From Thermoanaerobaculia bacterium (lineage in GTDB: Bacteria > Acidobacteriota > Thermoanaerobaculia > Gp7-AA8), in assembly GCA_035629865.1 (NCBI GenBank), contig DASPHC010000055.1, positions 70,940 to 134,939 of the forward strand: DNA of 64,000 nucleotides, written 5' to 3'. How positions within the stretch are numbered: the stretch's first letter is position 1; every line of letters begins with the position of its first letter. Positions 5,246-63,290 of the stretch are shown here, piece after piece. The notes beneath the pieces are model-generated. The model made no database searches and had not been told where the DNA came from. It was given only the letters and a program-made list of their open reading frames with translations. The translations under genes and the position numbers were made by a program.

Positions 5246-5319
5246 CAGGAGCGGTCGGGGGCATTCTACCCCGGGGAAAGGCAGAGGTCAGAAGGCAGAA
5301 GGCAGAAGGGAAGGCATGC

Positions 5320-5460
5320 CGCGGAGCTGGGGTCAGAGCTTCGTTTCGCGCGGAACAGAAGAACGAAGGTGTGACCCCAAGCGACGGGGCCGGCGGTTCC
5401 TCGGAGGGGTCAGAGCTTCGTTTTTCTCTCAGGAACAGCAGAACGAAGGTCTGACCCCTT
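5320..5460. repeat. REP-like palindromic elements (GGGGTCAGAGCTTCG / CGAAGGTCTGACCCC family), 2-3 copies in a divergent intergenic region
   Basis: Direct reading: ggggtcagagcttcgtttcgcg...cgaaggtgtgacccc and ggggtcagagcttcgtttttctc...cgaaggtctgacccc. Confidence 0.8.
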
Positions 5461-5559
5461 GACAGCCCCACTTCTGCCTTCTGCCCTCTGCCTTTCCCAC
5501 GTGGTCAATTCGCTGACCCTTTAGACACCTTTGGTGGGTTATATTCTCACCCCGCCATC

Positions 5560-10935: not shown

Positions 10936-11198
10936 CCTTACGGCGAGACGCCGCCGCCGGCGGGACGCCGCCGGACCAGCCGACGAGGACGTCGGCGCTC
11001 CAGGCGCGGACCGCGGTTCTCGCGAATCGGGCCGTCCGCAGTTCTCGCGAATCGGGCCGTCCGCGGTTCTCGCGAATCGAAACGTCGGCATTCCAGCGCA
11101 CGACCGATGCTCGTGAACGGAGGTCCGCGCGTGGAGCGCCGACGTCCTCGTCGGCTGGCCCGGCGGCGTCCCGCCGGCGCACGGCGTCTCGCCGTAAG
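10936..11198. repeat. MITE-like element with ~75-bp near-perfect terminal inverted repeats (CCTTACGGCGAGACGCC...) and three internal tandem 24-bp repeats (GGTTCTCGCGAATCGGGCCGTCCGC)
   Basis: Left arm 10936-11010 is the reverse complement of right arm 11121-11198. Internal direct repeats sit at 11012-11085. A shorter copy occurs at 44645-44830. Confidence 0.8.
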
Positions 11199-17084: not shown

Positions 17085-17200
17085 CAATGGGAGCTATGGG
17101 ACCTATGGGACAAATATGGGGTGAGCTGCCTCGTTTCATTCGTCCTATCGTCCCATAGGTCCTATTGGTCCCATTCGTCCTATCGGTCCCACATGCGTCC
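17085..17200. repeat. Cluster of short palindromes (GTCCTATAGGAC / GGACCAATAGGAC family) immediately after the mgtE stop
   Basis: Sequence reads ...gggacctatgggacaaatatgggg...gtcctatcgtcccataggtcctattggtcccattcgtcctatcggtccc. The same family recurs at 54175-54265. Confidence 0.7.
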
Positions 17201-25142: not shown

Positions 25143-26749
25143 TCCGGAATGGAGTAGAGCCGCAGGGAGGCGCCGATCCGGCGCACCGGCTGGTGCGCGT
25201 CGAGCCATGCATACGCCTGCGGCTCCTCGGCAATCTTCTTCATCTCGCTCAGCACCACCCAGCCGGTCACACACTGGCCGAGCGGCAGCGGCCGGGCGTG
25301 CGGGATGTGCACGCCCGGATCGGCCCAGCCGAAATACGCAAGATGGATCGGGGCGAGGCGCTCCCGTTCGACCACGCCGGCGAGCCGGTAAAGGTCCTGT
25401 CCCCAGTCGAGGTTGCTGTCGGAGGCGATCCGCTCCGGATGCCTGCCGGCCATCTCATTGAAATAGCTAAGGTAATCGGGATGGGCGAGGGCCGTGGCGA
25501 CGAAGAGCCAGCCCGCCAGCGTCACCGAGAGCACCTGTCCGGTACGGCTGCCTTTCCACCCCCAGACCACTGCCACGGCCGCTGCCATCGCCAGGAGCGG
25601 ATAGATCGGGAGCAGGTGCCGGACGCCGATGTTGATCCGGCTCGTCATCGCCATGCCCAGCATCGCCACGGGGATGAGAGCCAGATCCCAACGTCCCAGC
25701 CGCGCGAGTATCACCATCCCCGTCCCGGCGAGCAGCAGGAAGGCGATCGGCGTCTTGAAGAAGAGGATGACCGGAAAGTAATACCACCAGCCCCCCTGCC
25801 GAATCTCGCCGAAGAGGAAGGCCCGGTGATCTCCGCCGGAGTGGTCCGCCAGATACTGCAACCCGCTGAAGTAGCCTGTTACGTTGAACTTATAGAGAGC
25901 GATGACCATCAGGACGGTGGCCGTAGCAGCGACGCCGAGCTGGATGGGGTCACACCTTCGTTCTTTCATCGTGATGGGGTCAGAGCTTCGTTTTTCTGTT
26001 TTGGCGAAAAAAGCAAAGCTCTGACCCCGGCGCGACCGCGAAGAACGAAGGTCTGACCCCAAATCGACCGAAGAACGAAGGTCTGACCCCAAGTCGCCCC
26101 CGGGCGAAGAACGAAGGTGTGACCCCAGGAGAACGAGTGCCCCGACGCCAAAGTAGGCGATGAACGAGAATTTCGACGCCATCCCGACCGTGAGCGCAAG
26201 GCTGAGGACGGCGGCCCGGCTCCACCGCGGCTCGTCGAGCCAGCGGGAGAAGGCGTAGAGCGCGGCTGCGACGGTCGCGGTGGCGGCCATGTCCGTCGTC
26301 GCCAGGCCGGCATGGGCGAGGGTGGGGGGGAGGGCGCCGAAGAGGGCGACGGCGAGAAGGGCCGTGCCGGTCCCGGCCACCCAGCGGGTCCAGAGGAAAA
26401 CGATCGCCATCGCCAGGAGGAACCAGGGGAGGTTCGCCACTCTGGCTGCTGTTACGTTGCGGACGACGTGGGCGTCGCGGTAGACGATCGGCGCGCCCTG
26501 CTGGACCGGCGCGAGGGCCGGGTCGAGCCGCGTTCCCGCCAGCCAGGCATCGAGCGCGAAGCCGATGCGCGCGAGCGGCGGGTGCTCCGGGTCGACGCGA
26601 TACGAGTCCTGCGTCAGCCACTCCAGGCCGGCGGCGATGTGATACGGCTCGTCGGCGGTCAGGCTGAAGACGGGATAGGTCGCCGCAATGCGCGCGATCG
26701 CGACCAGGGTCAGGATCGCGAGCAGTGCGGCGACACGTCCACGGGACAT
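25133..26749 (-). CDS. Paralogous GT39/PMT_2-like membrane glycosyltransferase, also with in-frame REP insertions at the equivalent loop
   Basis: The N-terminus MSRGRVAALLAILTLVAIARIAATYPVFSLTADEPYHIAAGLEWL...EHPPLARIGF parallels the downstream paralogue. Positions 25960-26135 translate in-frame as ...DLRSSRSRRGQSFAFFAKTEKRSSDPITMKERRCDP... The gene overlaps the next by 10 bp. Confidence 0.5.
   Translation of the reverse strand: MSRGRVAALLAILTLVAIARIAATYPVFSLTADEPYHIAAGLEWLTQDSYRVDPEHPPLARIGFALDAWLAGTRLDPALAPVQQGAPIVYRDAHVVRNVTAARVANLPWFLLAMAIVFLWTRWVAGTGTALLAVALFGALPPTLAHAGLATTDMAATATVAAALYAFSRWLDEPRWSRAAVLSLALTVGMASKFSFIAYFGVGALVLLGSHLRSSPGGDLGSDLRSSVDLGSDLRSSRSRRGQSFAFFAKTEKRSSDPITMKERRCDPIQLGVAATATVLMVIALYKFNVTGYFSGLQYLADHSGGDHRAFLFGEIRQGGWWYYFPVILFFKTPIAFLLLAGTGMVILARLGRWDLALIPVAMLGMAMTSRINIGVRHLLPIYPLLAMAAAVAVVWGWKGSRTGQVLSVTLAGWLFVATALAHPDYLSYFNEMAGRHPERIASDSNLDWGQDLYRLAGVVERERLAPIHLAYFGWADPGVHIPHARPLPLGQCVTGWVVLSEMKKIAEEPQAYAWLDAHQPVRRIGASLRLYSIPECR
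25960..26135. repeat. REP-like palindromes (4-5 copies) embedded in-frame inside the second GT39-like gene
   Basis: ggggtcacaccttcg..., ggggtcagagcttcgtttttctg...caaagctctgacccc, cgaaggtctgacccc x2, cgaaggtgtgacccc. Confidence 0.8.
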
Positions 26750-27938: not shown

Positions 27939-28053
27939 GGTGAAGCCTCCGGTGGGGAGTGAAGTTCGGCGCGCATCATAGCTGAACGAGGGCAGAGGGC
28001 CGAGGGGGGAGGGCCGAGGGAAAGGAAATTACGAGAGTGAAACTGGAAACCGA

Positions 28054-28143
28054 TGGTGCCCCGGGCCGGACTCGAACCGGCACGCCCCTCACGAGGCAGC
28101 GGATTTTAAGTCCGCAGCGTCTACCAAATTCCGCCACCGGGGC
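28054..28143 (-). tRNA. tRNA-Leu (anticodon UAA), class II with long variable arm
   Basis: Minus-strand transcript GCCCCGGTGGCGGAATTTGGTAGACGCTGCGGACTTAAAATCCGCTGCCTCGTGAGGGGCGTGCCGGTTCGAGTCCGGCCCGGGGCACCA. 7-bp acceptor stem, D-arm, anticodon stem GCGGA/TCCGC with loop CTTAAAA (anticodon TAA), long variable arm, T-arm GGTTCGAGTCC, encoded CCA. Confidence 0.9.
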
Positions 28144-28149
28144 CGCTAT

Positions 28150-28262
28150 GTGAATGATAGAGGGCAGAGCGCCGAGAGGCCAAGGGCCGAGGAGCCGAAG
28201 CCGTGGTCATGCTCTGCGACGATTCCCTTGGCCCTCGGCCCTTGGCCCTCTGCCCTCCGGAA
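28150..28262. repeat. Long hairpin of the GGCCGAGGGC family (GAGGGCAGAGCGCCGAGAGGCCAAGGGCCGAGG ... inverted partner) adjacent to tRNA-Leu. A related direct copy lies at 27985-28020 on the other side of the tRNA.
   Basis: gagggcagagcgccgagaggccaagggccgaggagccgaagccgtggtcatgctctgcgacgattcccttggccctcggcccttggccctctgccctc. Confidence 0.75.
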
Positions 28263-42174: not shown

Positions 42175-42335
42175 ACAGGGGACGACCGGGAGGCCTCCGG
42201 CGGGCGGGCACGGCCCGCGGCGTTTGTTTTCGCATGGACCGCGTTTCGTGCGAGACGCGTGCGTTCAGCCTTGGGCGACAAACGCCGCGGGCCGTGCCCG
42301 CCCGCCGGAGGCCCCCGTCGTCTCCTGTGCCGGTG
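42175..42335. repeat. ~150-bp imperfect palindrome (GACGACCGGGAGGCCTCCGGCGGGCGGGCACGGCCCGCGGCGTTTGT ... inverted partner) between convergent gene ends; possible bidirectional terminator / MITE. Second copy at 55055-55205.
   Basis: Arm 42178-42225 is the reverse complement of 42283-42330; the same element recurs at 55058-55200. Confidence 0.75.
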
Positions 42336-44644: not shown

Positions 44645-44830
44645 TCCTCCCCACCCTTACGGCGAGACGCCGTCCGCCGGCGAGACGCCGCCGGACCAGC
44701 CCGCGCGACGCGGGCGCTCCCGGCGCGGACGCACCATTCGCGCTGACGGTCGTCCATGCGTGGAGCGCCGACGTCGCGTCGGCTGGCCCGACGGCGTCCC
44801 GCCGGCGGACGGCGTCTCGCCGTAAGGGGA
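44645..44830. repeat. Second, shorter copy of the CCTTACGGCGAGACGCC-TIR MITE-like element
   Basis: ccttacggcgagacgccgtccgccggc ... gccggcggacggcgtctcgccgtaagg. It is followed by a GGTTAAGGTTA x3 microsatellite at 44840-44875. Confidence 0.75.
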
Positions 44831-45039: not shown

Positions 45040-46878
<1,839 letters not shown>

Positions 46879-47033: not shown

Positions 47034-48776
47034 TTATTTCAGGCTGTTCAGGATGCGCGAGAGCTCCATCTTCTCCATGACGAGGCTGTCGAGACGGGCC
47101 GAGTCTCCGTTGCGCTCGGCATCCACGATCTCCCGCTGAATGAGTTGTTTGCGACGGTCGAGATATCCGCGCTCCATCGGCCGGAGGTTTTCGTCGATAC
47201 GGTCGAGAGCGCGATCGTCAATGTCCTCGGTGAGACTCAGCTCGCTCAGCAACAGCAGCTCGGCCTCGCCCTTAAGATGGGTCGCGACCTCTCCGAAATC
47301 AATAGGCTGGCCGGATAAAAGGTCACTTTTTATGATAGAAAACAGGGTTTTGCAGGCCGGGTCCTCGAAAAACTCCGCCTGAAGCCGGTCCACCTGCTGG
47401 TTTGTCAGCCTTCCCTGAATGGCCGCGGTGAGCACGAACTTCTCTCCCGTGGGGATTGGCGCCCTGGTCTGACGCTCGGCCGACGCGCCGGTGCTGGCCT
47501 TGCCACGGACCCGCGACCAGACCGTCTCGAACTCGAGCCGGAAGGCGTCGGCGATCCTCTGGGCGGCCTCGTTCCGCACGACCGGGTCGGTGACAGCCGA
47601 GAGGAGTGGCATGAAGCGCTCGACCCGCTCCGATTTGTCGCGGCCTGAGAGCTGGGCGGCGTCGGCCGCCCACTCGCGCAGGCCGAATTCGAAGATGTCG
47701 AGGGCGGTGGAGAGGACTTCCAGGAACTTGTCGGCTCCGTATTTCTGGACCAGCGCGTCGGGGTCTTTCTCTCCCTGGAGGTCGAGGGCGGAGACGTTGA
47801 TGCCGGCCGCGAGCAGGACCTGGGCGGCGCGCAGGGTGGCGTTGCGGCCCGCGTCGTCGCCGTCGTAGGCGATGACGACGTTGCGGGTGTAGCGGCGGAT
47901 GACGGACGCCTGGCCCGCGGTCAGCGAGGTGCCCATCGAGGCGACCACGCCCGGCACGCCGGCGAAGTCGATGGCGATGGCGTCGAAGTAGCCTTCGACG
48001 AGGATGGCCCTGTCATAGCGCCGCATGGCGTCTTTGCTGCGGTGGAGGTTGTACAGGAGGCGCGATTTGTTGAAGAGCTCCGACTCGGGAGAGTTGAGGT
48101 ACTTCGGCTCGCTGCCATCGAGCGAGCGCCCGCCGAAGCCGACCAGCGCCCCGGTGTCGGAGTGGATGGGGATCATGAGGCGGTTGCGGAAGCGGTCGTA
48201 GAAGCCGCTCTTTTCCTTGCGCGGCATGACGAGGCCGGTCAGCTCGAGCTTTTTGTCGCCGTGTTTCTGTCCGAGGCGGCGGAGGATGTAGTCCCAGGAG
48301 TCGGGAGCGAAGCCGAAGCCGTATCGGGTGACGATGTCTTTGGAGACGCCGCGTTTCTGCAGGTAGTCGTCGGCGGCATTCGGGGTCCAGTGGAGCGCCT
48401 GGTGGAAGGCCTCGGAGGCGTCGTCGATGACTTCGAAGAGATCGTCCTTCCCGCTCTCGCGCTGGCTCTTCCGCTTTTTCGGCAGTTCGATCCCGACGCG
48501 CCCGGCCACATGTTCGACGGCTTCGGGAAAGGTGAAGCGTTCGGTGAGGGTGAGGAACTTGAAGACGTCGCCCCCGGTGCCGCAGCCGAAGCAGTAGAAG
48601 AGTCCCTTGTCGCGGTCGACGTGGAAGGAGGGGGACTTTTCGCGGTGGAAGGGGCAGAGGCCCTTGTAGCTTTTGCCCGCGAGCTTCAGGGGCGTGACCT
48701 GCTGCACGAACTCGACGATGTCGGCCGCGGAGCGCACCTGCGCGATGATCGAGTCGTTCAGGTCAACGAAGGCCAT
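47034..48776 (-). CDS. dnaG: DNA primase DnaG
   Basis: N-terminal zinc-ribbon CPFHREKSPSFHVDRDKGLFYCFGCGTGGD, TOPRIM domain (LVEGYFDAIA), C-terminal helicase-interaction domain. Confidence 0.9.
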   Translation of the reverse strand: MAFVDLNDSIIAQVRSAADIVEFVQQVTPLKLAGKSYKGLCPFHREKSPSFHVDRDKGLFYCFGCGTGGDVFKFLTLTERFTFPEAVEHVAGRVGIELPKKRKSQRESGKDDLFEVIDDASEAFHQALHWTPNAADDYLQKRGVSKDIVTRYGFGFAPDSWDYILRRLGQKHGDKKLELTGLVMPRKEKSGFYDRFRNRLMIPIHSDTGALVGFGGRSLDGSEPKYLNSPESELFNKSRLLYNLHRSKDAMRRYDRAILVEGYFDAIAIDFAGVPGVVASMGTSLTAGQASVIRRYTRNVVIAYDGDDAGRNATLRAAQVLLAAGINVSALDLQGEKDPDALVQKYGADKFLEVLSTALDIFEFGLREWAADAAQLSGRDKSERVERFMPLLSAVTDPVVRNEAAQRIADAFRLEFETVWSRVRGKASTGASAERQTRAPIPTGEKFVLTAAIQGRLTNQQVDRLQAEFFEDPACKTLFSIIKSDLLSGQPIDFGEVATHLKGEAELLLLSELSLTEDIDDRALDRIDENLRPMERGYLDRRKQLIQREIVDAERNGDSARLDSLVMEKMELSRILNSLK

Positions 48777-48779
48777 GGG

Positions 48780-49145
48780 TGGGGGGAGGGCCGAGGGCCC
48801 CGGAGACAGGGCCGAGGGCCGAGGGCCGAGGGCCGAGGGGAAGCAAGATAGCCGCCGGAGGCGGCGATAGATCTGTAGGCCCGCCCTTCAGGGCGGGTTT
48901 GCGCGGATCGGGGAGCGGCGAGTCCGCGTAGCGGGCGACAGAACAGGGACTCGCGTGAATCCTATCCTGTCGCCCGCTTCGCGGGCTTGCCTTGGCGGGC
49001 CGCGTGGTGCCCGGCCTGAAGGCCGGGCCTACAGATCTTTCGCCGCCTTCGGCGGCTGGGGCACGATCGCACCATCCGATCTGGCGTCGATGGCGATCCT
49101 CGTTTCCGGCCCTCAGCCCTCGGCCCTCGGCCCTCGGCCCTGTCT
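48780..49145. repeat. Composite element between dnaG and mutS2: flanking GGGCCGAGGGCCGAGGGCCGAGG / inverted arrays enclosing a ~230-bp MITE-like core with ~45-bp TIRs (GCCGCCGGAGGCGGCGATAGATCTGTAGGCCCGCCCTTCAGGGCGGG ... CCCGGCCTGAAGGCCGGGCCTACAGATCTTTCGCCGCCTTCGGCGGC)
   Basis: Direct reading. The core contains internal inverted repeats (CGGGCGACAGAACAGGGACTCGCG ... GTCGCCCGCTTCGCGGGC). A second core copy lies at 60550-60740. Confidence 0.8.
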
Positions 49146-49147
49146 CC

Positions 49148-51538
49148 CTACTCATCCAACACCGCAATCGTCGCCCCATCTCCGCCTTCATTCTCCGCGC
49201 CTGGCCGCCACGACTTTACGGCGGGGTGTTTCTTGAGGTGCTGGCGGATGGCTTTGCGCAGGGTGCCGGTGCCGAAGCCGTGGATGATGCGGACGGCCTG
49301 CTTTCCTTCGAGTAATGCGCGGTCGAGGAATTTGTCGGATTCGTCGAGGGCGTCGTCGACGCGCTGGCCGATCAGGTTGAGCTCCGCGGCTATCATAGGG
49401 CCGAGGGCCGAGGGCTGAGGGCCGAGGGCGAAGCCTGAAGGAGCGGAGCCCCTCGGCCCTTTGCCCTCGGCCCTCGGCCCTGCATCTTTCGGGATGAGGT
49501 CGCGCAGCTCGACCGTCACTTTGCGGCCGCTGACGGTCATGATGGCTTTGGCGCCTTCGATCGAGATCACTTCGCCGACGACTTTGAACTTGCGGTGCTC
49601 GGCTTTGTCGCCGACGCGCACTTCGCGCTGTTCGGCGGGGATGAACTCCATTGCCTTATCAAGCGGCTTGGTGACCGTCCGCAAGACCTCGGTCGCGTTC
49701 AGGGAGGCGCGGGCGGTGCGGTCCATGTCGCGGAGGTTCTTGATCTCGTTCGTCACCTGGCGGGCGACATCGTCGCGCAGGCGCTCGAGTTCTTCACGGT
49801 AGGTCGTGCCGAGGCGGGTGCGCTCTTTCTCCAGCGCCTCGGATTTCTGCTGCATCGTGGTCCGCTCGCGCTCGAGGTCTTTGCGCAGGCTCAGCACCTC
49901 GTCCTGCTGCGCGACGATCTCGGACATCTTCTTCTGCAGCGTGGCCAGCAGATGGTCGGTCTCGCCGTAACGCTCGCCGAGGCGCTCCTTCGCCGAGGCG
50001 ATGATCGGGGCAGGGAGGCCGATGATCTTGGCGACCTCGATGGCGCGCGAGCGGCCCGGGATGCCACTGATCAGCCGGTAGGTCGGCTGGCCGGTCGCGG
50101 AGTCGAACTCCATCGAGGCGTTGACGATGCGGGTGTCGTTGACGGCGAAGCTCTTGAGCGCGGAGAGGTGGGTGGTGACGACGAGCAGCGCGCCGGTCTC
50201 GAGCAGGTGCTCGATCACCGCCGCGGCGATGGCGGCCCCTTCTTCCGGATCGGTTCCGGAGCCGAGCTCGTCGAGCAGCACCAGCGATTTGGGGGTGGCG
50301 CGGGCGAGGATGCGCTTGAGGCGCATCAGGTACGCCGAGAAGGTCGAGAGGTGTTCGAGGACGCTCTGGTCGTCGCCGATCAGAACGTGCAGCGCGTCGA
50401 CGACCGGCAGTACGGTCCCTTCGGCGGCGGGGACGGGAAGGCCGCTCATCCCCATGGCCACCAGGAGGCCGGCGGTCTTGAGTGAGACGGTCTTGCCGCC
50501 GGCGTTCGGTCCGGAGACGACGAGCGCGGATTTCTCGCCGGTGAGGTCGATCGTCAGGGGGATGACTTTCCGGCCGCTCGGCTCTTCACCAAAGGCGGTC
50601 TCGCGCGCGTCGGCGAGGCGCTCGTCGAGCAGCGGATGGCGTCCTTCGACGATGTGCAGCGTGCGGTCGCTCGAGAACGACGGGCGCGCGGCGCGGATGG
50701 CGTCGTGGAAGACGGCGCACGCCTGCAGGGCGTCGAGCTCGCCGGCGACGGCGGTGGCCTCGAGGATGCCGAGGCGATGCTCGAAGACGGTCTGGGAGAC
50801 GAAGCGGGTGATGCGGGCGATCTCTTCGCGCTCCTGGATGAGGAGGTCGGCGAGGTCGTTGTTCAATTCGATGGCCTGCATCGGCTCGATGAAGAACGAC
50901 GCGCCGGAGCCGGAGCGCTCGTGGAGGATGCCGGGGACGGCGTTGCGGTTGTCGCTGCGGATGGGGATGCAGTAACGGTCGCCGCGCATGACGATCAGCG
51001 GCTCCTGAACCGCGTCTTCATTGCGGTTCATGATGTCGTTGAGGGTCTTCTGGATGGCGGAGCGTTTCTGGTGGACGCGGGTGCGGATGGCGCGCAGCTC
51101 GGCCGACGCTTCTTCGCGCAGCTTGCCTTCGCGGGTGAAGTATTTGTTGGTCTTGGTCAGCAGCTCGCCGAGGTCGGGGATGGCCGCGGACATGGCCAGC
51201 AGGCGTGGGAAGCCGCTGGTGCGCTGGAGGGTCTCGCGGATGGCCTGGGTGGCGCGGACGGCCCGGACGACGTGCCACGATTCTTCGATCTCGAGGACGG
51301 TCTCGCGGTCGAATAGCGGCCGCAGGTCGTCGAGGCCGGCCAGCGGCAGGAGTCCCTCGGTGTGGAAGAAACGGACCATCTCGGCGAGGTCGGCCTGCGC
51401 GCTCTCGCACTCGGCCGCCGTCCGCAACGGCCGCCGCCGAGCGACGGCTTCCTTGCCGGGGACGCTCTTGGCTTCCATCGCGACCAGCGTGAGGACGCGG
51501 TCGAATTCGAGGGTGGTCAGGGATTCAGGGTTGGTCAT
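49148..51538 (-). CDS. mutS2: Endonuclease MutS2 (MutS domain III/ATPase plus C-terminal Smr domain), with an in-frame GGCCGAGGGC-palindrome insertion in the linker before Smr
   Basis: Walker A GPNAGGKT, MutS signature region, C-terminal Smr (ELNLIGQRVDDAL...VRIIHGFGTGTLR). The linker ...DAGPRAEGKGPRGSAPSGFALGPQPSALGP... is encoded by the repeat at 49380-49480. Confidence 0.85.
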   Translation of the reverse strand: MTNPESLTTLEFDRVLTLVAMEAKSVPGKEAVARRRPLRTAAECESAQADLAEMVRFFHTEGLLPLAGLDDLRPLFDRETVLEIEESWHVVRAVRATQAIRETLQRTSGFPRLLAMSAAIPDLGELLTKTNKYFTREGKLREEASAELRAIRTRVHQKRSAIQKTLNDIMNRNEDAVQEPLIVMRGDRYCIPIRSDNRNAVPGILHERSGSGASFFIEPMQAIELNNDLADLLIQEREEIARITRFVSQTVFEHRLGILEATAVAGELDALQACAVFHDAIRAARPSFSSDRTLHIVEGRHPLLDERLADARETAFGEEPSGRKVIPLTIDLTGEKSALVVSGPNAGGKTVSLKTAGLLVAMGMSGLPVPAAEGTVLPVVDALHVLIGDDQSVLEHLSTFSAYLMRLKRILARATPKSLVLLDELGSGTDPEEGAAIAAAVIEHLLETGALLVVTTHLSALKSFAVNDTRIVNASMEFDSATGQPTYRLISGIPGRSRAIEVAKIIGLPAPIIASAKERLGERYGETDHLLATLQKKMSEIVAQQDEVLSLRKDLERERTTMQQKSEALEKERTRLGTTYREELERLRDDVARQVTNEIKNLRDMDRTARASLNATEVLRTVTKPLDKAMEFIPAEQREVRVGDKAEHRKFKVVGEVISIEGAKAIMTVSGRKVTVELRDLIPKDAGPRAEGKGPRGSAPSGFALGPQPSALGPMIAAELNLIGQRVDDALDESDKFLDRALLEGKQAVRIIHGFGTGTLRKAIRQHLKKHPAVKSWRPGAENEGGDGATIAVLDE

Positions 51539-51619
51539 TTTTCAGAAGCTCGCAGTTGGCAGCTCGCAGCTCGCAGCAGAACCTGGGGCGGGTGGGCCTG
51601 CAAGCTTAGAGCTGCGAGC

Positions 51620-51678: not shown

Positions 51679-51885
51679 TTAGTAGCCGGTGCGACGCTCT
51701 TCGGCGAGCTTGCGCAACACTTTCTTCCGGGCCGCGATCGCTTTACGCTTCCGCTTGGTGCTCGGCTTTTCGAAGTGCTGACGCTTCTTCAGCTCGGAGA
51801 GAATCCCCGACTTCTCACATTTCCGCTTGAAGCGGCGAAGCGCATTCTCGAAAGACTCGTCTTCTTTGACGTGTACGAGAGGCAT
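51679..51885 (-). CDS. rpsU: 30S ribosomal protein S21
   Basis: [55 protein letters not shown]... matches canonical S21. Confidence 0.9.
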
Positions 51886-52091: not shown

Positions 52092-54179
52092 ATGAAAATG
52101 TTGAAAATAACAATGCTGGCGCTGCTCCTCGCCTCCTGTGCGACGCAGCCGGCCCCTCGAACGGCCTCGGTAGCGACCCCTGCGGTTCCGGTCACGGAGG
52201 CCCGTCCGGCGCGAGAAGTTCTCCATGGTGTAGAGATCTCCGATCCGTACCAGTGGCTCGAGGATCAGGAGGCTCCGGCCACCCGCGAATGGATCAGCCG
52301 GCAGAATGCCTACACGGACGCGATCCTCGGTCCGCGCCCGGAGCCGGGCATCTTCGCGGCCCGGCTCGAGCAGCTCATGACCACCGACAAGATCTCCGCC
52401 CCGCACTACCGCAACGGGCGTTTCTTCTTCCTGCGCCGCGCCATCGGGGAGGACCAGGCCTCCCTCTATCTGCGCGACCGGAAAGGGAAGGAGGAGCGGC
52501 TGATCGACCCCGCGCCGATGAGCCCGGACCATACCGTCAGCGTCGGCATCTACGACATCACGCCGGACGGGAAGTTGCTGGCCTACTCGGTGCGCAAGGG
52601 GGGAGCGGACGAAGTCGAGATCCGTTTCTACGACACCGATGCCCGCCGCGACATCGGCGAGCCTCTGGCACGCGAACGTTTCTACACGGTCAACATCGCC
52701 CCGAACAACGACGTCTATTACACACGCCGGACGGCGGCCGGTCCTCGCACGTTCCGCCGTCCGCTCACCGGCGGGCGGGAGCACGAGCTGTTCGGCAGCG
52801 GCTACGGTCCGGAGAAGCTCATCTACAGCGCGCTGTCGGAGGACGGACGCTATCTGCTGGTCAACGTCCTCCACGGATCGGCGCCGAAGAAGACGGAGAT
52901 CTACGTCGACGACCTGCGCGATGCCGCTCCGCCGCAGACGGTGGTGAACGACCTCGATTTCCGCACGTTCGGCGAGATGGCCGGCGACTCGATCGTCCTC
53001 CACACGAACTGGAACGCGCCGAACGACCGGGTGATGGTCGCCAGCGCGGCCGCGCCGGGACGCGGGCAGTGGAGGGAGATCGTGCCGGAGAATCCGAAGG
53101 CGGCGATCCAGTCGACGTCACTCGCCGGGGGCCGCGTCTATGTGAAGTATCTCGAGGAGGTGAAGCCGCGCCTGATCGGCTACGACCTCGAGGGCAACCG
53201 GAAGGACGACGTGGCGTTTCCGACCCTCGGCAACCTCAGCGACATGTCGGGGACGTGGACCTCGCCGGTGGCCTTCTTCGGCTTCAGCTCCTTCCACGTG
53301 CCGAACACCATCTATCAATATGACGTCGCGACCGGCGGCCGGTCGGTCTTCACGGTCGAGAACGCGCCGGTGAAGCCGGACGACTTCACGGTCGAGCAGG
53401 TGTGGTACCCGTCCAAGGACGGGACGCGCGTTCCGATGTTCCTGTTGTCCCGCAAGGGCGTGCAGCGCAACGGTGCGAATCCGGTCTTCCTGACCGGTTA
53501 CGGCGGCTTCACCTCCAGCATGACACCGTCGTTCTCGGCGAAAGCCATCGCCTGGGTCGAGCAGGGAGGGATCTATGCGGTCCCGAACCTCCGCGGCGGC
53601 GGGGAGTTCGGCGAGGCGTGGCATCGGGCCGGGATGCAGGACACGAAGCAGAACACGTTCGACGACTTCATCGCGGCGGCCGAGTATCTGGTGCGCGAGC
53701 GCTATACGTCGCCGCGGCACATCGCCATCGCCGGCGGCAGCAACGGCGGCCTGCTGGTGATGGCCGCGGCGATGCAGCGGCCGGATCTCTTCGGCGCCGT
53801 GGTCTGCCGCTATCCGTTGATCGACATGCTTCGCTATCACAAGTTCCTCGTCGGCAGCTTCTGGGTGCCGGAGTACGGCGACCCCGCGAAAGCCGAGGAG
53901 TTCCAGTGGGTGTATGCGTACTCGCCGTATCACAAGGTGAAGCAGGGGACGAAGTATCCGGCCACGCTCTTCATCACCGGCGACGCCGACACGCGCGTGG
54001 CTCCGCTGCACGCCCGGAAGATGACGGCGCTGATGCAGGCCCAGGCCGGGAACGGTCCGGAAGACCCGATCCTGCTGCGCTATCACATCGCCGGAGGGCA
54101 CGCGGGCGGAGAGCCGCTCGCCGTGCAGGTGAAGAACGCGGCCGAGGAGTTGGGGTTTGTGTGGTGGCAGGTGAAATAG
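52092..54179 (+). CDS. Prolyl oligopeptidase (S9A family) lipoprotein
   Basis: Lipobox LLASCAT; N-terminal beta-propeller; catalytic domain with GGSNGGLL (Ser nucleophile), plus catalytic Asp/His regions (GDADTRV, GGHAG). Start chosen at MKMLKIT with RBS AAGGAAA. Confidence 0.85.
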   Translation: MKMLKITMLALLLASCATQPAPRTASVATPAVPVTEARPAREVLHGVEISDPYQWLEDQEAPATREWISRQNAYTDAILGPRPEPGIFAARLEQLMTTDKISAPHYRNGRFFFLRRAIGEDQASLYLRDRKGKEERLIDPAPMSPDHTVSVGIYDITPDGKLLAYSVRKGGADEVEIRFYDTDARRDIGEPLARERFYTVNIAPNNDVYYTRRTAAGPRTFRRPLTGGREHELFGSGYGPEKLIYSALSEDGRYLLVNVLHGSAPKKTEIYVDDLRDAAPPQTVVNDLDFRTFGEMAGDSIVLHTNWNAPNDRVMVASAAAPGRGQWREIVPENPKAAIQSTSLAGGRVYVKYLEEVKPRLIGYDLEGNRKDDVAFPTLGNLSDMSGTWTSPVAFFGFSSFHVPNTIYQYDVATGGRSVFTVENAPVKPDDFTVEQVWYPSKDGTRVPMFLLSRKGVQRNGANPVFLTGYGGFTSSMTPSFSAKAIAWVEQGGIYAVPNLRGGGEFGEAWHRAGMQDTKQNTFDDFIAAAEYLVRERYTSPRHIAIAGGSNGGLLVMAAAMQRPDLFGAVVCRYPLIDMLRYHKFLVGSFWVPEYGDPAKAEEFQWVYAYSPYHKVKQGTKYPATLFITGDADTRVAPLHARKMTALMQAQAGNGPEDPILLRYHIAGGHAGGEPLAVQVKNAAEELGFVWWQVK

Positions 54180-54265
54180 GACCTATAGGACGAATGGGAC
54201 CAATAGGACGGCGTCATTCGTCCTATTGGTCCTATGAGTCCCATAGGTCCTATTTTGGATCACGC
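54175..54265. repeat. Second copy of the GGACCTATAGGAC / GGACCAATAGGACG palindrome cluster, between convergent 3' ends of the prolyl oligopeptidase and udk genes
   Basis: ggacctataggacgaatgggaccaataggacggcgtcattcgtcctattggtcctatgagtcccataggtcctat, including the perfect hairpin GGACCAATAGGACG / CGTCCTATTGGTCC. Confidence 0.75.
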
Positions 54266-55029: not shown

Positions 55030-55057
55030 CGCGGCGAAGGATAACGGATTCCGGTGG

Positions 55058-55200
55058 CACGAGGGGACGACGGGAGGCCTCCGGCGGGCGGGCCCGGCCC
55101 GCGGCGTTGGTTGCCATAAGCTGAACGCACGCTCTCGAACGAAACGCGGTTTGCGCGAAAACAAACGCCGCGGGCCGGGCCCGCCCGCCGGAGGCCCCTC
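55058..55200. repeat. Second copy of the GACGAC(C)GGGAGGCCTCCGGCGGGCGGGC...palindrome family
   Basis: gacgacgggaggcctccggcgggcgggcccggcccgcggcgttgg...ccaacgccgcgggccgggcccgcccgccggaggcccctcgtcgt. Confidence 0.75.
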
Positions 55201-55214
55201 GTCGTTCCCTCGTG

Positions 55215-55949
55215 TCACCGGTTGCCGATTCTCGGCACGATGAACTTTCCGGAGTTGGTCGCGTTCTCGACGACCGAGGCGTAGACGTGGGTGTCGCGGG
55301 AAGACGTCTCGATTACCACGGAGAACCCTTCCCCTTTGGTGATCATCGGAAAGAGCGACTGGACGGCCATGTGGACGAGCGAGCCGGCGTCGACGCTGAT
55401 GTTGGTCACGGCGACGCTGCGGCCGGGGATGCGCTGCAGGGCGAGGAGGAACTCGGCGGGGCGCTCGCCGGTGTTGACCAGGCCGAGGTTCGTCCGGAAA
55501 TCGTCACTGAAGGCGAGGCCGTCGAGGACGCGCACCGGAAAGTAGGTGTCGGGGCCGTAGGTGGCGATCGTCTGCGGCGGCGAGATCTCGGCTCCGCGGA
55601 CCGCGTAGGCCTGGGCGCGCACGGTGAGGCCGCGGCGGCCGGCGGTGGTGATGCGCAGCGGGGAGAGGGCGGAATCGAGACCGAAGGCCTGGCCGACGAT
55701 GTCGGTGAAGCGCTGCGACTGGCCGGGCGAGAGGGTGAAGGCGACCATCGGCGAGCCGGAGCCGGCGGGGAGCTCGAGGGCGACGTCGACTTCGAGGCCG
55801 GTCTCGTTCACCAGCTCGACGTCGGTCAGCCAGCGAATCATCGTCGGGCCGAAGACGCTGCCGACCACCGGGACGATCGTGGTGGCGGTGCTCTGCGCGC
55901 GAGCCGTCGCGGCAAACAGCAGTAATCCAATCAGAAGTCGAAACTTCAT
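55215..55949 (-). CDS. Secreted hypothetical protein
   Basis: Signal peptide MKFRLLIGLLLFAATARA; beta-rich, no recognised motif. Confidence 0.45.
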   Translation of the reverse strand: MKFRLLIGLLLFAATARAQSTATTIVPVVGSVFGPTMIRWLTDVELVNETGLEVDVALELPAGSGSPMVAFTLSPGQSQRFTDIVGQAFGLDSALSPLRITTAGRRGLTVRAQAYAVRGAEISPPQTIATYGPDTYFPVRVLDGLAFSDDFRTNLGLVNTGERPAEFLLALQRIPGRSVAVTNISVDAGSLVHMAVQSLFPMITKGEGFSVVIETSSRDTHVYASVVENATNSGKFIVPRIGNR

Positions 55950-58055: not shown

Positions 58056-59750
58056 GCTTTACGTATGAATTCCGAAACGCCTGAAGAATCCGAGCTTGCA
58101 CCGCCACCGCCCAAGCCGCCCGGCCCGTCGAAGTTCGGCGGGTATGCGATGTTCGTGGCTGCCGGAATTCTGCTGAGCCGCGTGGCGGGGCTGATCCGCA
58201 CCAGCGTCTTCGCCCATTACCTCGGCGCGTCCGCCGCGGCCGACGCGTTCAACGTGGCGCTCAAGGTCCCGAACTTCCTGCAGAACCTCCTCGGCGAGGG
58301 GGTGCTCTCGGCGTCCTTCATCCCGGTCTACTCGCGGCTGGTCTCGCGCGGCGAACAAAAGGAGGCCGACCGCGTCGCCGGCGTCTTCGTGTCGTACCTG
58401 GCGCTGATCGTCATCGCCATCGTCGCGGTGGGCGTGCTGGCCACGCCGCTGATCCTCGGCATCACCGCGGCGGGTCTCGACCCGCCCGTGATGGCGATGG
58501 CCATCAAGTACACCCGCATCATCTTTCCCGGCGTCGGCCTGCTCGTCCTCTACGCCTGGGCGCTCGGCATCCTGAACACGCACCGCCAGTTCTTCATCGG
58601 CTACGTCGCCCCGGTGCTCTGGAGCGCGGCGATGATCGCCACGCTGGTCATCTTCGGGATGACCATGAGCGGCGCCCGGCTGGCCCACGCGCTGGCGTGG
58701 GGAACGCTGGTCGGGTGCGTGCTGCAGTTCGCCATCGAGATCCCGTTCGTGCTCCGCCATGCGAAGCATCTGTCGTTCGGTTTCGACCGGACCCTGGAGC
58801 CGGTGAAGACCATCTTCCGGAACATCGTCCCGGTGGTCGGGGGACGCGGCGTGGTCCAGATCAGCGGCTACGTCGACACCTTCATCGCGTCATTTCTCCC
58901 GACCGGCGCGGTGACGAGCCTCTTCTACGCGCAGACGATCTACATGCTGCCGATCTCGGTGTTCGGCATGTCCGTCGCGGCAGCGGAGCTGCCGCAGATG
59001 GCCGGCGAAAAGGGCTCGGAAGAGGAAATCAGCCGCGCCCTGCGGCGCCGGCTCGACCGAGGAATCCGGCAGGTCGCCTTCTTCGTCGTGCCGACGACCG
59101 TGGCGTTCATCCTCATCGGCCGCGTGCTCATCGCAGCGCTGTACCAGCGCGGCAAGTTCTCCGCAGATACGACCTTGCTGGTCTGGTACATCCTGATCGG
59201 CTCGTCGATCGGCCTGCTGGTGGCAACGTTCGGGCGGCTCTACTCCTCGGCGTTCTACGCTCTGCACGACACGAAGACGCCGTTCCGGATCGCCCTGGCG
59301 CGCGTCTTCGGCGGCGCCGGACTGGCGCTGCTGTTCGCCTTCCCGCTCCGCCCGATGTTTGCCGCGGGGGCCGACGCGCTCGGCCTGCCGATTCCGCACA
59401 CTGCGGGAGGGGCTGCGGCACTCGGCGTGGTCGGCATCACCGCCGCGTCGGGCATCGCCACCTGGATCGAGTTCCTTCTGCTGCGCCGCGGCATCCGGCG
59501 CCGGCTGGGAGCAGGGGAGGCGCAGGGCGGCTATCTCGCGAAGCTCTGGTTTTCGGCGGTCCTCGCCGGACTGGCGTCGCTCGCCGCCGACATCTACTTC
59601 GCGCGCGATCTCGCCGCCCGCCTCCCGCTCTCCCGGATCGCCGAGGCCCTGCTGGCGTGCGGAATCTTCGGCGTCGTCTACTTCGCCGTCGCCTTCGCGT
59701 TGCGGGTCCCCGAGGTCACTGCGACGCTCAGCCGGTTGACGAGGCGGTAG
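58056..59750 (+). CDS. murJ: Lipid II flippase MurJ (MviN)
   Basis: ~14 TM helices; conserved MurJ N-terminal region LLSRVAGLIRTSVFAHYLGASAAADAFNVALKVPNFLQNLLGEGVLSASFIPVY. Start chosen at MNSETPEE; the upstream in-frame extension to 57501 is non-coding-like. Confidence 0.85.
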   Translation, partial: ALRMNSETPEESELAPPPPKPPGPSKFGGYAMFVAAGILLSRVAGLIRTSVFAHYLGASAAADAFNVALKVPNFLQNLLGEGVLSASFIPVYSRLVSRGEQKEADRVAGVFVSYLALIVIAIVAVGVLATPLILGITAAGLDPPVMAMAIKYTRIIFPGVGLLVLYAWALGILNTHRQFFIGYVAPVLWSAAMIATLVIFGMTMSGARLAHALAWGTLVGCVLQFAIEIPFVLRHAKHLSFGFDRTLEPVKTIFRNIVPVVGGRGVVQISGYVDTFIASFLPTGAVTSLFYAQTIYMLPISVFGMSVAAAELPQMAGEKGSEEEISRALRRRLDRGIRQVAFFVVPTTVAFILIGRVLIAALYQRGKFSADTTLLVWYILIGSSIGLLVATFGRLYSSAFYALHDTKTPFRIALARVFGGAGLALLFAFPLRPMFAAGADALGLPIPHTAGGAAALGVVGITAASGIATWIEFLLLRRGIRRRLGAGEAQGGYLAKLWFSAVLAGLASLAADIYFARDLAARLPLSRIAEALLACGIFGVVYFAVAFALRVPEVTATLSRLTRR

Positions 59751-59807
59751 TTCCAGTAGAAACCGCGGACGGCGTATCGCGCCGCCGTAGGCGGCGGAAG
59801 ATCTGTT

Positions 59808-60546
59808 AGGGGTAGGAGGAGGCCTCCCGGCCTCCCCCTCCCTCCGAACCGGACTGGCGGATCTCCCGCATCCGGCTCTCCAGGGGTGGATGCGATGGCA
59901 GATGTGTACACGTGGGACTTGCGTCACGGTGAAAGAAGTCTGACGTGCTGACTCACTGCTGAGTCACTCTGTCACCAGAGCCCATCTACATCGGTCGATC
60001 AGCGCCCCGGCGGGTGCGAGCACGAATTCGCCTGCTCGCAGCTCTCGCGTTTCTAGCCTTTCGGCAATTGGCGATTCCCCGTCTTGACGTTGCCTTCCGA
60101 TTCCACCTCCCTGCCTCCCTTTGCTCCACGCCCGTTACAGCGCTTCTCAGCTCCTATGGAGGCTCAGTCACCCGTCTGCCTTTCACTTGCGCAGCTGCGG
60201 GGATCCCCGATTCACGTCACCTGAATCTTCCTGTCGTTCTGTCTCCAACCACCCCGTGCCTTCCCATGTCCGCTTTCTCCATGCTCGGTTAACTTTCGCG
60301 TTCTGGGTTCGTCACCGTAGAGCCGTTTCCCGTCAGCGCTCATCGGTTTCCAAGGCTTCGCCTCTGCCTAGCAGGCTCGCCAAGACACAAGGCCGAATCG
60401 AGTTTCTAGTCGTACGGACCGACAGGCTCGCCTTCCGTTGCTCTCCACCCCGTCTTACGACGACGCAGTTTCGGTCGGCTTTCAACCAGTCGAGCATTTG
60501 GTTGAGAGTGTTCTCACCTCCTCTTTCAGGTGCGCTTTCGAGCGCA
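59808..60546 (-). ncRNA. ORF-less group II intron (~740 nt), inserted into the left terminal inverted repeat of a MITE copy
   Basis: Minus-strand 5' end GUGCGCUCGAAAGCGCACC (GUGYG) begins immediately after MITE sequence (+ strand 60541-60546 gcgcac). Domain V at 59846-59878 reads GAGCCGGAUGCGGGAGAUCCGCCAGUCCGGUUC (consensus GAGCCGUAUGCGAUGAAAGUCGCACGUACGGUUC), with the AGC triad and a GNRA loop. Domain VI-like hairpin GGAGGCC-GGGA-GGCCUCC with a bulged A follows. The region has lower GC (~55%) and no protein-like ORFs. MITE TIR halves flank it at 59785-59807 and 60547-60570. Confidence 0.65.
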
Positions 60547-60740
60547 CTAAGCCCGCCCTTCAGGGCGGGTATCGTGCGGCCCCCATGAAGGCGAGTCCGC
60601 GAAGCGGGCGACAGAACAGGGACACGCGAAAACCTACGCTGTCGCCCGCTTCGCGGACTTGCCTCGTCTCCTCGACCTTTACCCGGCCTGAAGGCCGGGC
60701 CTACAGATCTTTTGCCGCCTACGGCGGCGGCGGATCGTTC
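60547..60740. repeat. Second copy of the ~230-bp MITE-like core, whose left TIR is interrupted by the group II intron (the outer TIR half lies at 59785-59807)
   Basis: taagcccgcccttcagggcggg...gagtccgcgaagcgggcgacagaacagggacacgcg...gtcgcccgcttcgcggacttgcc...ccggcctgaaggccgggcctacagatcttttgccgcctacggcggc. Compare 48853-49085. Confidence 0.75.
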
Positions 60741-60835
60741 CTGCGAGGCCTCCAGGCGATTTCTTCACAGCTTCTGAGACATCGTCCCCCGGGCTTGCGC
60801 TGCTGCCGGGCCGGCTTCTTGCTACCATCCGCGCC

Positions 60836-61900
60836 GTGACGGAAATCCCGGTTCAACAGCCGGTGGGGATGACAGGAGCGCAGGTGGCGGATGTCGACGT
60901 CAACCCTGCCGAGGCGCTGCTCGAGGTGAAGAACCTCCGCACGTCGTTCGGCTCGGTGCATGCGGTCGACAACGTGTCGTTCAACGTGCGGCGCGGCGAA
61001 GCGGTGGCCCTGGTCGGCGAGTCGGGCTGCGGCAAGAGCGTGACCGCGATGTCGATCATGCGGCTGATCGCGCCGCCCGGAAAGATCACCGCGGGGCAGG
61101 TCAGTTTCAAGGGAAGGGACCTGGCCAGTATCTCCGAGCGGGACATGCGCAACGTGCGCGGCAACGACATCGCCATGGTCTTCCAGGAGCCGATGACGTC
61201 GCTCAACCCGGTCTTCAAGATCGGCGCGCAGGTGGCCGAGGCGATCCGTATCCACCGGAAAGTCGGCAAGAAGGAAGCGTGGAAGCAGGCGGGGGAGATG
61301 CTGGAGCTCGTCTCGATCCCCGATCCGGTCAAGCGGCTGGACGACTATCCGCACCAGCTCTCCGGCGGCATGCGCCAGAGGGTGATGATTGCCATCGCCC
61401 TCTCGTGCGACCCGGAGCTGCTGATCGCCGACGAGCCGACGACCGCGCTCGACGTGACCATTCAGGCGCAGATCATGGAGCTGCTGGCGTCGCTGCAGAA
61501 GAAGCTCGGCCTGGCCGTGCTGCTCATCACCCACGATCTCGGCGTGGTGGCGGAGTTCTGCGAGCGGGTCATCGTGATGTACACCGGCCGCGTGGTCGAA
61601 GACGCGCCGGTGGAGCAGCTCTTCGCCAACCCTTCCCATCCATACACGCGCGGCCTGCTCAAGTCGCTCCCCGGCGCCGCACTCGTCGCCGGCACGCCGA
61701 TCGGCCGCCTCCCGACCATCGCCGGCATGGTCCCGTCGATCACGAATCTGCCGAAGGGCTGCAAGTTCAACCCCCGTTGCCCCGACGTGATGGATATCTG
61801 CCTCGGCAACGAGCCGGCGCTCATGCCGGTCGGGCCGGGACAATCCGCTCGGTGCTATTTGCATGGGGATGCGGCGGACCCGGAACGGATTGAGAATTGA
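60836..61900 (+). CDS. Oligopeptide/dipeptide ABC transporter ATP-binding protein (OppD/DppD-like)
   Basis: Walker A GESGCGKS, signature LSGGMRQR, Walker [14 protein letters not shown]-terminal oligopeptide-ABC extension with [10 protein letters not shown] (Cys cluster). Confidence 0.8.
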
Positions 61901-61904
61901 GGAT

Positions 61905-61990
61905 TGAGGATTAGGAAGAACGAGAGATGACCGCCCGGACACCGAATCCTCAATCCTCAATTCTCAATCCTCAATCCGGGTCTTGCGAGG
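61905..61990. repeat. Inverted array of TTGAGGA heptamers between the two ATPase genes
   Basis: gaattgaggattgaggattagg...ccgaatcctcaatcctcaattctcaatcctcaatccgg. Confidence 0.7.
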
Positions 61991-63204: not shown

Positions 63205-63290
63205 ATTGGTTATCGGTTGTCAGTTGTCAGTTGTCGGCCATTTCTCGCGCTGAATGGCCATTGACTGACAACTGATAACCGACAACAACC
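63205..63290. repeat. Imperfect long hairpin with AGTTGTC x3 heptads after oppF (terminator-like)
   Basis: ggttatcggttgtcagttgtcagttgtcggccatttctcgcgctgaatggccattgactgacaactgataaccgacaac. Confidence 0.6.

Follow-up and report, generated by a model that had tools for sequence, protein, structure and literature searches.

A 64,000-nt stretch of a Thermoanaerobaculia genome (contig DASPHC010000055.1, positions 70,940 to 134,939 of the forward strand; hereafter the window) carries, inside the reading frame of mutS2, a palindromic segment that is translated as the tether joining the KOW-like barrel of MutS2 to its Smr domain. Our analysis indicates that this segment is likely to be a recently acquired copy of a dispersed hairpin repeat, with arms made of heptamer arrays, that is tolerated at this position and forms the tether by default. 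Related species display in-frame hairpins of other repeat families at the same site, and our best reading is that palindromic repeats, selfish or neutral, have repeatedly overwritten a disordered, length-constrained tether.

A previous reading of the DNA, made from the letters and their translations without database searches (the sequence-only reading), had placed an array at 49380-49480 and given its peptide. The array is real, and the peptide is the one we read in the translation of the open reading frame (ORF) at 49148-51538, which runs straight through the array (...IPKDAGPRAEGKGPRGSAPSGFALGPQPSALGPMIAAELN...). The element proper is narrower, an 84-nt segment at 49397-49480. On the plus strand it consists of AGGGCCGAGGGCCGAGGGCTGAGGGCCGAGGG (49397-49428), a 21-nt loop and CCCCTCGGCCCTTTGCCCTCGGCCCTCGGCCC (49450-49481), and both arms were recognized by Tandem Repeats Finder as period-7 arrays of 4.6-4.7 copies. 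The heptamer is GGGCCGA, accompanied by the imperfect units GGGCAAA and GGGCTGA, and each arm contains just two perfect consecutive units. GGGCAGA is a further variant found in the family. The element has a length divisible by 3, is open in each of the three sense frames, and encodes a peptide rich in Gly, Pro, Arg, Ala and Ser. The outer ends are CAGGGCCGAG ... CTCGGCCCTAT, with neither a GTAG nor a CGTC tag.

When the array was folded as RNA in the mutS2 sense, a single hairpin of -78.5 kcal/mol was obtained (z = -7.3), and none of 200 shuffled sequences was as stable. The folding that had been proposed as a check thus gave one very stable hairpin and, with the ORF translated through it, agrees with the earlier view that a stable hairpin and a Gly/Pro/Ala-rich tether share one segment. 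The G-rich sense arm also fits a G-quadruplex motif (four tracts of G3N1-7 at positions 2058 and 2065 of the coding sequence; five of G3N4). This quadruplex is putative, deduced from the motif, and the complementary arm 21 nt away would compete with it.

The protein itself is MutS2, the ribosome-collision ATPase of the Smr/MutS family. It matched Bacillus subtilis MutS2 (8qpp/7qv3) over the full length (E = 6e-104), MutS_V (PF00488) was found at residues 340-520, and the Walker A motif GPNAGGKT is present. In the same alignment, the KOW-Smr segment of the window protein is ~9 residues longer than that of B. subtilis. The segment had been described as an ATPase-Smr linker. It does stand directly before Smr, but it does not directly follow the ATPase, as ~165 residues of coiled coil and KOW-like barrel intervene. 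Judged from this alignment, the segment is the KOW-Smr tether.

Copies of the repeat and history of the linker

For comparison, we used 80 species-level loci from GTDB genomes (L numbers below) and 120 proteins (P numbers), all from Thermoanaerobaculia/Acidobacteriota. Within the window, GGCCGAGGGCCGAG with at most one mismatch occurred 14 times, against 0.23 expected from shuffles, and a window scan found every occurrence within 27991-28247, 48810-49139 or 49399-49479. The mutS2 array had been assigned to the same family as the arrays next to tRNA-Leu and in the dnaG-mutS2 spacer, and this is borne out by the motif being found at just these three loci and by their related arms and loops. In the spacer element, the outer arms are GGAGACAGGGCCGAG(GGCCGAG)n (48801-48839) and its complement (49107-49147), enclosing ~270 bp. 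Nested within this heptamer-armed element is a GTAG-tagged doublet of repetitive extragenic palindromes (REP) at 48850-49057 (GTAGGCCCGCCCTTCAGGGCGGG ... CCCGGCCTGAAGGCCGGGCCTAC), suggesting that a REPIN-like element inserted into an older hairpin. The same spacer measures 6 bp in L081 and ~110-135 bp in L085 (135 bp) and L005, where it is occupied by a simple hairpin of the same family.

Copies were also found beyond the window. In unrelated metagenome contigs, hairpins with the 21-mer CCGAGGGCCGAGGGCAAAGGG as 5' arm and a complementary 3' arm were again found, often right after a stop codon; the scan returned 9 stretches only, too few for a family consensus. A 29-nt arm, (GGGCCGA)2GGGCAAAGGGCCGAG, was identical in unrelated contigs, and the outer end CAGGGCCGAG is common to several copies. 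The loop of the window linker element matched that of the L085 mutS2-dnaG spacer element at 15 of 18 positions (p ~0.004), and the loop of the L005 spacer element matched that of the window tRNA-Leu hairpin at 18 of 21. As arms and loops are shared between copies, these are related copies and not only convergent low-complexity sequence. One of the 9 stretches, L086 (832-852), was rejected as a family copy, the 21-mer there being a chance match within ordinary coding sequence (LLPRAEGKGRAAAFEIM), which we take to resemble PilT-type ATPases. A GPRAEGKG-like peptide string alone is therefore not diagnostic of the repeat. In L089 (82-284), a GGGCCGA hairpin with its flank is present twice in identical form, 182 nt apart, a tandem duplication of the element-containing unit.

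The KOW-Smr linker was present in all orthologues. It is 26-48 aa long, rich in Ala, Pro, Ser, Gly and Arg, and hypervariable, so that the alignment of orthologues that had been suggested indeed revealed a lineage-specific linker of variable length. The closest protein (P0002, from L085) is 89.5% identical to the window MutS2 outside the linker and has an ordinary linker of 31 aa; in this protein and its clade the linkers end in SSGDVAVVVSA. In the window, the element has substituted essentially the whole ancestral linker, with ~63 nt giving way to 84 nt. L085 harbours the repeat family in its mutS2-dnaG spacer and not in its linker. Taken from these sequence comparisons, the window linker element appears to be a recent, lineage-specific gain. 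The best non-self match in the protein database was 86% identical, and no within-species variants were present there.

Arrays related in unit were found in three further linkers. L081 (P0023/27/48/52) contains only the left arm of a heptamer array, in the same frame as in the window, giving the peptide GPRAEGKG. L083 has a complete GGGCCGA hairpin in a different frame (-99.6 kcal/mol), and L084 a (GGGGCGA)n hairpin (-91.1 kcal/mol). In a neighbor-joining tree the arrays of the window, L081, L083 and L084 fall in separate clades, each with repeat-free relatives, and a single origin of the window and L081 arrays as the simplest history was rejected on this ground. According to the sequence-only reading, the same peptide encoded without a nucleotide repeat would have pointed to coincidence. 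The result falls on neither side: the GPRAEGKG of L081 is encoded by the same heptamer array, of which it has the left arm only.

We then considered hairpins of any family at the linker. The census was carried out with an ungapped inverted-repeat finder (score >=14), and 96-nt windows in the rest of mutS2 from the same loci served as controls. A strong hairpin was found in the linker of 17 of 78 Thermoanaerobaculia species (22%) and in none of 1,586 control windows. With a stricter finder, 14 hairpins were called in the 7.1 kb of linker, compared with 13 in the 177 kb making up the rest of the reading frame; of the latter, 10 lay upstream of the true start codon, two were real insertions (L003, L031) and one (L043) was apparently a chance repeat. 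When all linkers were folded, strong hairpins of unrelated families were seen, namely (GGGAGTC/GGGGGTC)n in L067, L038, L041, L040, L077, L065 and L039, (GGGATGA)n in L061 and L035, a CCTCGG-type repeat in L006, (GCAGCTC)n in L046, (GATCGCA)n in L047, and REP-like palindromes in L022, L026, L003, L031, L064 and L076, with the GTAG type among the linker families. A one-armed (AATCCTC)n array was present in the L069 linker.

Hairpin-bearing linkers are only 4.7 aa longer on average, although the elements span ~71 nt, which argues for replacement of the linker rather than addition to it and implies a constraint on length. Species whose MutS2 proteins are 85-96% identical share the (GGGAGTC)n copy, which some of them have in near-perfect and others in degraded form, a pattern that looks like inheritance and decay, not maintenance. 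A repeat serving as a peptide linker had been called unusual. This is the case in general, but within this class it is common, taking into account the 17 of 78 species and a second window gene with an in-frame palindrome (see below). MutS2 also has a second permissive site just before MutS_V (query residues ~315-335), where REP-like palindromes were observed in L003 (3696-3774) and L031 (3984-4086); these account for some of the longer orthologues of 812-840 aa.

Tolerance of the site and rival explanations

In an alignment of 40 sequences, residues 685-717 showed a mean column conservation of 0.33, compared with 0.80-0.93 in all other blocks. Only here is there a long run of columns (25 residues) none of which reaches 70% conservation, the next longest runs being 6 and 5 residues. 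An AlphaFold2 model gave a predicted local distance difference test (pLDDT) score below 50 and no secondary structure at residues 686-723, between a predicted beta-barrel (645-683) and Smr. Cryo-electron microscopy work on B. subtilis MutS2 has described a flexible loop that connects KOW and SMR (PMC10897456). Disorder-promoting residues make up 85% of hairpin-derived linkers and 90% of ordinary ones, and the tether of the window protein is likewise predicted to be disordered. Tolerance alone is sufficient to explain the hotspot at the linker.

We propose that the repeat family has a common architecture of GGGCCGA-type heptamer arms, G-rich on the 5' side and C-rich on the 3' side, with a short loop. 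The linker copy probably stems from the one in the mutS2-dnaG spacer next to it, some hundreds of bases downstream; the match between the linker loop and the spacer element in the sister genome points to this origin. The linker copy would have taken over the DNA for the KOW-Smr tether, with ~63 nt of former linker becoming 84 nt. The element would persist there because no stretch of the protein other than the tether is free of constraint; the tether would be disordered, with selection limited to its approximate length and to a flexible, hydrophilic make-up. With a palindrome open in three frames and a peptide of Gly, Pro, Arg, Ala and Ser, the hairpin would make a serviceable linker by default and not through design. 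At least ten other repeat families would have overwritten this tether in related species, each independently, with old copies decaying in place. Both the copying of the element and its neutrality are, in our view, plausible. The system would then offer a clear example, replicated across species, of a disordered inter-domain linker of a conserved housekeeping protein that is made and remade from selfish palindromic DNA, with selection acting only on reading frame, length and composition.

Several observations weigh against this proposal. The density of hairpins at the linker (17/78 per ~93 nt) is equal to or above our rough estimate for the intergenic regions of the window (~14 in ~11.7 kb), which leaves room for positive selection. 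The half-array of L081 agrees with the window array in position, frame and the GGGCAAAGGG variant in spite of its different clade; a simple single-insertion history fails for this pair, which may instead reflect lateral exchange or an early insertion that was later lost many times. The loops of most family members are unrelated, so that convergent slippage of a favoured heptamer could explain part of the similarity. No transposase, target-site duplication or within-species empty/filled polymorphism was found, with no search aimed at a parent insertion sequence or RAYT, and mobility is suggested by dispersal only. The AlphaFold2 model, built from 40 close orthologues, was mediocre (mean pLDDT 62.9) and was used qualitatively for residues 686-723.

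The unrelated loops also bear on the possibility that slippage and fold-back synthesis within the linker created the array in place, its similarity to other arrays reflecting a genome-wide mutational bias to GGGCCGA-type heptamers. In the window and the 85 loci L001-L085 (657 kb in total), 41 of 122 strong inverted repeats had arms of period 7 or 9, and polarity was strict: the 5' arm was G-rich in 60 inverted repeats and C-rich in none. Dozens of heptamer and nonamer units with one architecture and one polarity suggest a generating process over one transposon, and heptanucleotide repeats are reported to be the commonest class of long simple-sequence repeats in bacteria, for which polymerase slippage has been proposed (PMC4679880, citing Mrazek 2007). 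On the other hand, an origin in situ does not account for the homology (15/18) between the loop and that of the spacer element in the sister genome L085, the 29-nt arm identical in unrelated contigs or the shared outer end CAGGGCCGAG, and we consider it unlikely.

Slippage would also have consequences for the protein. The array had been thought of as a hotspot for in-frame length variation, an idea at odds with its unit length: with a 7-nt unit, gain or loss of one unit shifts the frame, and only three-unit changes keep it. As computed, a change of -7 in either arm leads to a stop at residue 712 and loss of Smr, and a change of +7 gives a protein of 785 aa with out-of-frame sequence replacing Smr. 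The heptamer array is a liability, not a device for in-frame length variation. The same numbers, with a unit length that is not a multiple of 3, a stop directly after the linker on one side and out-of-frame sequence instead of Smr on the other, would suit a phase-variation switch in which one-unit slippage turns Smr off and on. Only two adjacent units per arm are perfect and the arrays are imperfect, which makes such a role unlikely; moreover, many species have non-tandem palindromes at this site, and no frameshifted Smr was seen at this point among the 120 proteins or 80 loci. Phase variation is accordingly given very little credence here.

A functional role of the RNA or DNA structure was considered as well. 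The hairpin or the G-quadruplex might be a cis-element in an rpsU-mutS2-dnaG-rpoD transcript, as a processing site, an exonuclease barrier or a pause before Smr, and its recurrence would then reflect selection for structure. The extreme stability of the hairpin (-78.5 kcal/mol), the five G3N4 tracts of the sense strand, the presence of some hairpin at exactly this site in 22% of the species and the frequency of such hairpins in adjacent intercistronic spacers (37 of 70 mutS2-dnaG spacers) are all in line with this. As MutS2 senses collided ribosomes (PMC10897456), stalling on its own mRNA could provide feedback. Nevertheless, the element is absent from the nearest relatives, 78% of the species have no hairpin here, the repeat families differ, and inherited copies decay without compensatory change. 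In the nine-species (GGGAGTC)n clade the covariation term was +1.36 (unfavourable) and 2 of 19 pairs were compensatory, a weak negative given the ambiguous alignment of tandem units. A terminator and promoter scan gave nothing at 49397-49481, the sequence downstream of the hairpin being CUAUGAUAGCC, and a search of the window against Rfam 15 at gathering scores returned only the tRNA and a group II intron domain, with nothing at the mutS2 element. The sequence-only reading had raised an effect on transcription through this operon. The gene order on the minus strand is as it described, and co-transcription is presumed; the effect itself finds no backing, as there is no U-tract or terminator-like site and no Rfam family, and the structure is not conserved in the nearest relatives. 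With the linker being the only unconstrained segment of the protein, tolerance alone accounts for the hotspot, and a cis-acting role seems improbable to us. We give an equally slim chance to a related scenario, in which Thermoanaerobaculia hairpins form an undescribed self-propagating class of 7- or 9-nt arrays, with dozens of units and a single G-rich 5' / C-rich 3' polarity, and the mutS2 copy makes the mRNA of the collision sensor its own collision site. A stem of at least 30 bp (or a quadruplex) just upstream of Smr would then couple MutS2 synthesis to MutS2 activity, and the recurrent gain in 22% of the species would reflect selection, not only tolerance.

Finally, the segment could be an assembly artefact, a repeat-induced chimera in a metagenome-assembled genome (MAG) from short reads. 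The sequence does come from a MAG, a single contig carries the exact protein, and palindromic repeats can confuse assemblers. Both flanks, however, align in frame to the orthologues with an insert of exactly 28 codons, and similar in-frame hairpins are found in MAGs from many independent projects, including megabase-scale records titled complete chromosomes (L065, OY970284.1; L077, OY970380.1). An artefact is highly unlikely, and we retain the interpretation of the segment as a tolerated copy of a dispersed repeat.

Repeat landscape of the genome

With loops limited to 150 nt, 15 strong inverted repeats were detected in the window. According to an approximate gene map, 13 of them lie between genes and typically fill the whole spacer, the exceptions being those in mutS2 and in a gene for a GT39/PMT_2 glycosyltransferase. 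The features are compiled in Table 1. Arrays of other heptamer or nonamer units each fill an intergenic spacer, and some of them touch stop codons.

Table 1. Positions of the mutS2 element, its relatives and neighbouring features in the window
Feature	Positions	Strand	Remarks
In-frame hairpin repeat element	49397-49480	-	84 nt, 28 codons (MutS2 residues 687-714); peptide GPRAEGKGPRGSAPSGFALGPQPSALGP
Arm, 3' in mRNA sense, C-rich, CCCTCGGCCCTCAGCCCTCGGCCCTCGGCCCT	49397-49428	-	complementary at 30/32 positions
Hairpin loop, mRNA sense GCTCCGCTCCTTCAGGCTTCG	49429-49449	-	21 nt
Arm, 5' in mRNA sense, G-rich, AGGGCCGAGGGCCGAGGGCAAAGGGCCGAGGGG	49450-49481	-	five G3 tracts, 4-nt spacing
mutS2 (Smr/MutS family, 796 aa)	49148-51538	-	100% identical to deposited Thermoanaerobaculia MAG protein
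KOW-like beta-barrel, residues ~640-684, adjoining the element upstream	49487-49621	-	alignment to B. subtilis MutS2; AlphaFold2 strands 645-683
Smr domain, residues 720-794, adjoining the element downstream	49157-49381	-	Pfam PF01713, E = 4e-24
Composite palindromic element, ~360 bp, occupying the entire mutS2-dnaG spacer	48786-49147		heptamer outer arms
Same-family hairpin adjoining tRNA-Leu	28159-28257		loop vs L005 spacer element 18/21
Further array, equal orientation, opposite side of the tRNA	27987-28020		same heptamer family
tRNA-Leu(UAA), arrays on both sides	28054-28143	-	Rfam tRNA match
rpsU (ribosomal protein S21), upstream gene	51679-51885	-	cluster member
dnaG, downstream gene	47034-48776	-	cluster member
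rpoD, last cluster gene	45040-46878	-	cluster member
Inverted array GGATTGA	61887-61970		intergenic
Inverted array GTTGTCA	63209-63286		intergenic
Inverted array ATGGGACCT	17086-17175		intergenic
Inverted array AATAGGACC	54174-54255		intergenic
Inverted array pair AAGGCAG	5278-5494		intergenic; spacing beyond the 150-nt loop limit of the finder

The glycosyltransferase gene (23130-25148, minus strand) is the second in-frame case. A REP-like doublet at 24368-24485 (GGGGTCACACCTTCGTTCTTT ... AAAGAACGAAGGTGTGACCCC) is read in frame and results in an insertion of ~40 aa that is missing from 13 orthologues. In-frame palindromes are thus a general phenomenon in this genome. The REP family of this doublet also occurs between genes at ~5330-5460 and 25945-26127, and the orthologue P0123 has PIGPIGPIS in the corresponding loop, which at the protein level resembles the translation of a 9-mer array.

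As for the spacers flanking mutS2, the mutS2-dnaG spacers without a hairpin repeat, as opposed to those of the 37 of 70 species that have one, measure only 0-60 bp (0-150 nt after the mutS2 stop was covered, in loci L003-L084), and the length of this spacer is therefore set by the presence or absence of an element. The rpsU-mutS2 spacer holds arrays in many loci, including (AGCTCGC)n at 51547-51577 in the window. Large palindromes with arms of 36-76 nt represent two further families (10955-11179 with 44654-44828, and 42192-42313 with 55051-55221; cores GACGCCGCCGGACCAGCC and GGCCTCCGGCGGGCGGGC), all intergenic. The group II catalytic intron domain match (RF00029, 53.6 bits) lies at 59805-59880 on the minus strand, in a region (59750-60836) without a confident gene call.

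These results show Thermoanaerobaculia, abundant uncultured soil Acidobacteriota, to be dense in single-polarity hairpins made of heptamer or nonamer arrays, and the polarity bears on the old question why 7-nt repeats dominate the long simple-sequence repeats of bacteria. For annotation, low-complexity stretches of Gly, Pro, Arg and Ala in proteins of these MAGs can be translated repeats, and not assembly errors or functional motifs. In our opinion, this surrounding repeat biology (the polarity, the 7/9-nt periodicity and the turnover of the linker) is of greater interest than the single instance in mutS2.

Comparison with known repeat systems

REP and REPIN elements, which are mobilised by RAYT transposases (PMC3116915, PMC3733652), resemble the repeats described here in being short dispersed palindromes, often inverted doublets in spacers, as is the GTAG-tagged doublet in the adjacent spacer (48850-49057). 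REP-like palindromes are also present in the MutS2 linkers of L022, L031 and L076. The mutS2 element differs from them in its tandem-heptamer arms and in having no GTAG or CGTC tag. Nor is it demonstrably a miniature inverted-repeat transposable element, as no direct duplication flanks 49397-49480 or 48801-49147, and inverted arms are trivially present.

With respect to the heptamer, the closest known counterparts are the G-rich repeats of GGGNATC or GGGGA(C/T)T in Xanthomonas and Nostoc, which have about four units and are quadruplex-capable (Rehm et al. 2015, PMC4692102). The window arms agree with these in a G3-tract unit and in copy number, with 4.6-4.7 copies against ~4 units per array. 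The Xanthomonas and Nostoc repeats frequently form convergent pairs able to fold into stem-loops, and they are mostly intergenic, within ~50 bp of ORF ends, and under-represented in ORFs (PMC4692102), and 13 of the 15 strong inverted repeats of the window are likewise intergenic. In contrast, the unit GGGCCGA does not fit the consensus GGGNATC or GGGGAYT, the phylum is another, many other units coexist in the same genomes, and the mutS2 copy lies inside an ORF and is translated. The heptanucleotide STRR repeats of cyanobacteria and the TAACTGA repeats of Beggiatoaceae (PMC4679880) are also dispersed tandem heptamers, mainly intergenic and of obscure origin; unlike the present arrays, they are mostly direct and AT-rich, rarely occur as inverted pairs, and are not described as translated linkers.

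The generation of disordered protein segments from repeats has a precedent in the tandem repeats of Borgs, which create intrinsically disordered regions (PMC9879509). In both cases, rapidly evolving nucleotide repeats in ORFs give rise to new disordered segments. The Borg repeats are direct, with units that are multiples of 3 in ORFs, whereas the mutS2 element consists of two 7-nt arrays in inverted orientation, and only its full length preserves the frame. In the literature we found no description of one orthologous linker overwritten by at least ten families across a bacterial class, nor of a strict G-first polarity.

In behaviour, the closest counterparts are the Rickettsia palindromic elements (RPEs), in-frame insertions in unrelated housekeeping genes that are translated and regarded as selfish DNA (Ogata et al. 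2000, reviewed in PMC10969869). RPEs are dispersed short palindromes that are in frame and add extra peptide where fold and function allow (PMC10969869). The window element behaves in the same way: its palindrome recurs at other places in the genome, sits within an ORF without disrupting the frame, and is missing from close orthologues. Actual membership is implausible by length, GC content and host, and the likeness is one of behaviour only: RPEs are ~100-150 bp long with a family-specific consensus and reside in an AT-rich obligate intracellular alphaproteobacterium, whereas the window element is 84 nt, GC-rich and built from heptamer-array arms. Furthermore, RPEs add a segment to the protein, but the window element replaces an existing linker, at an orthologous site that has been struck by many families across species.

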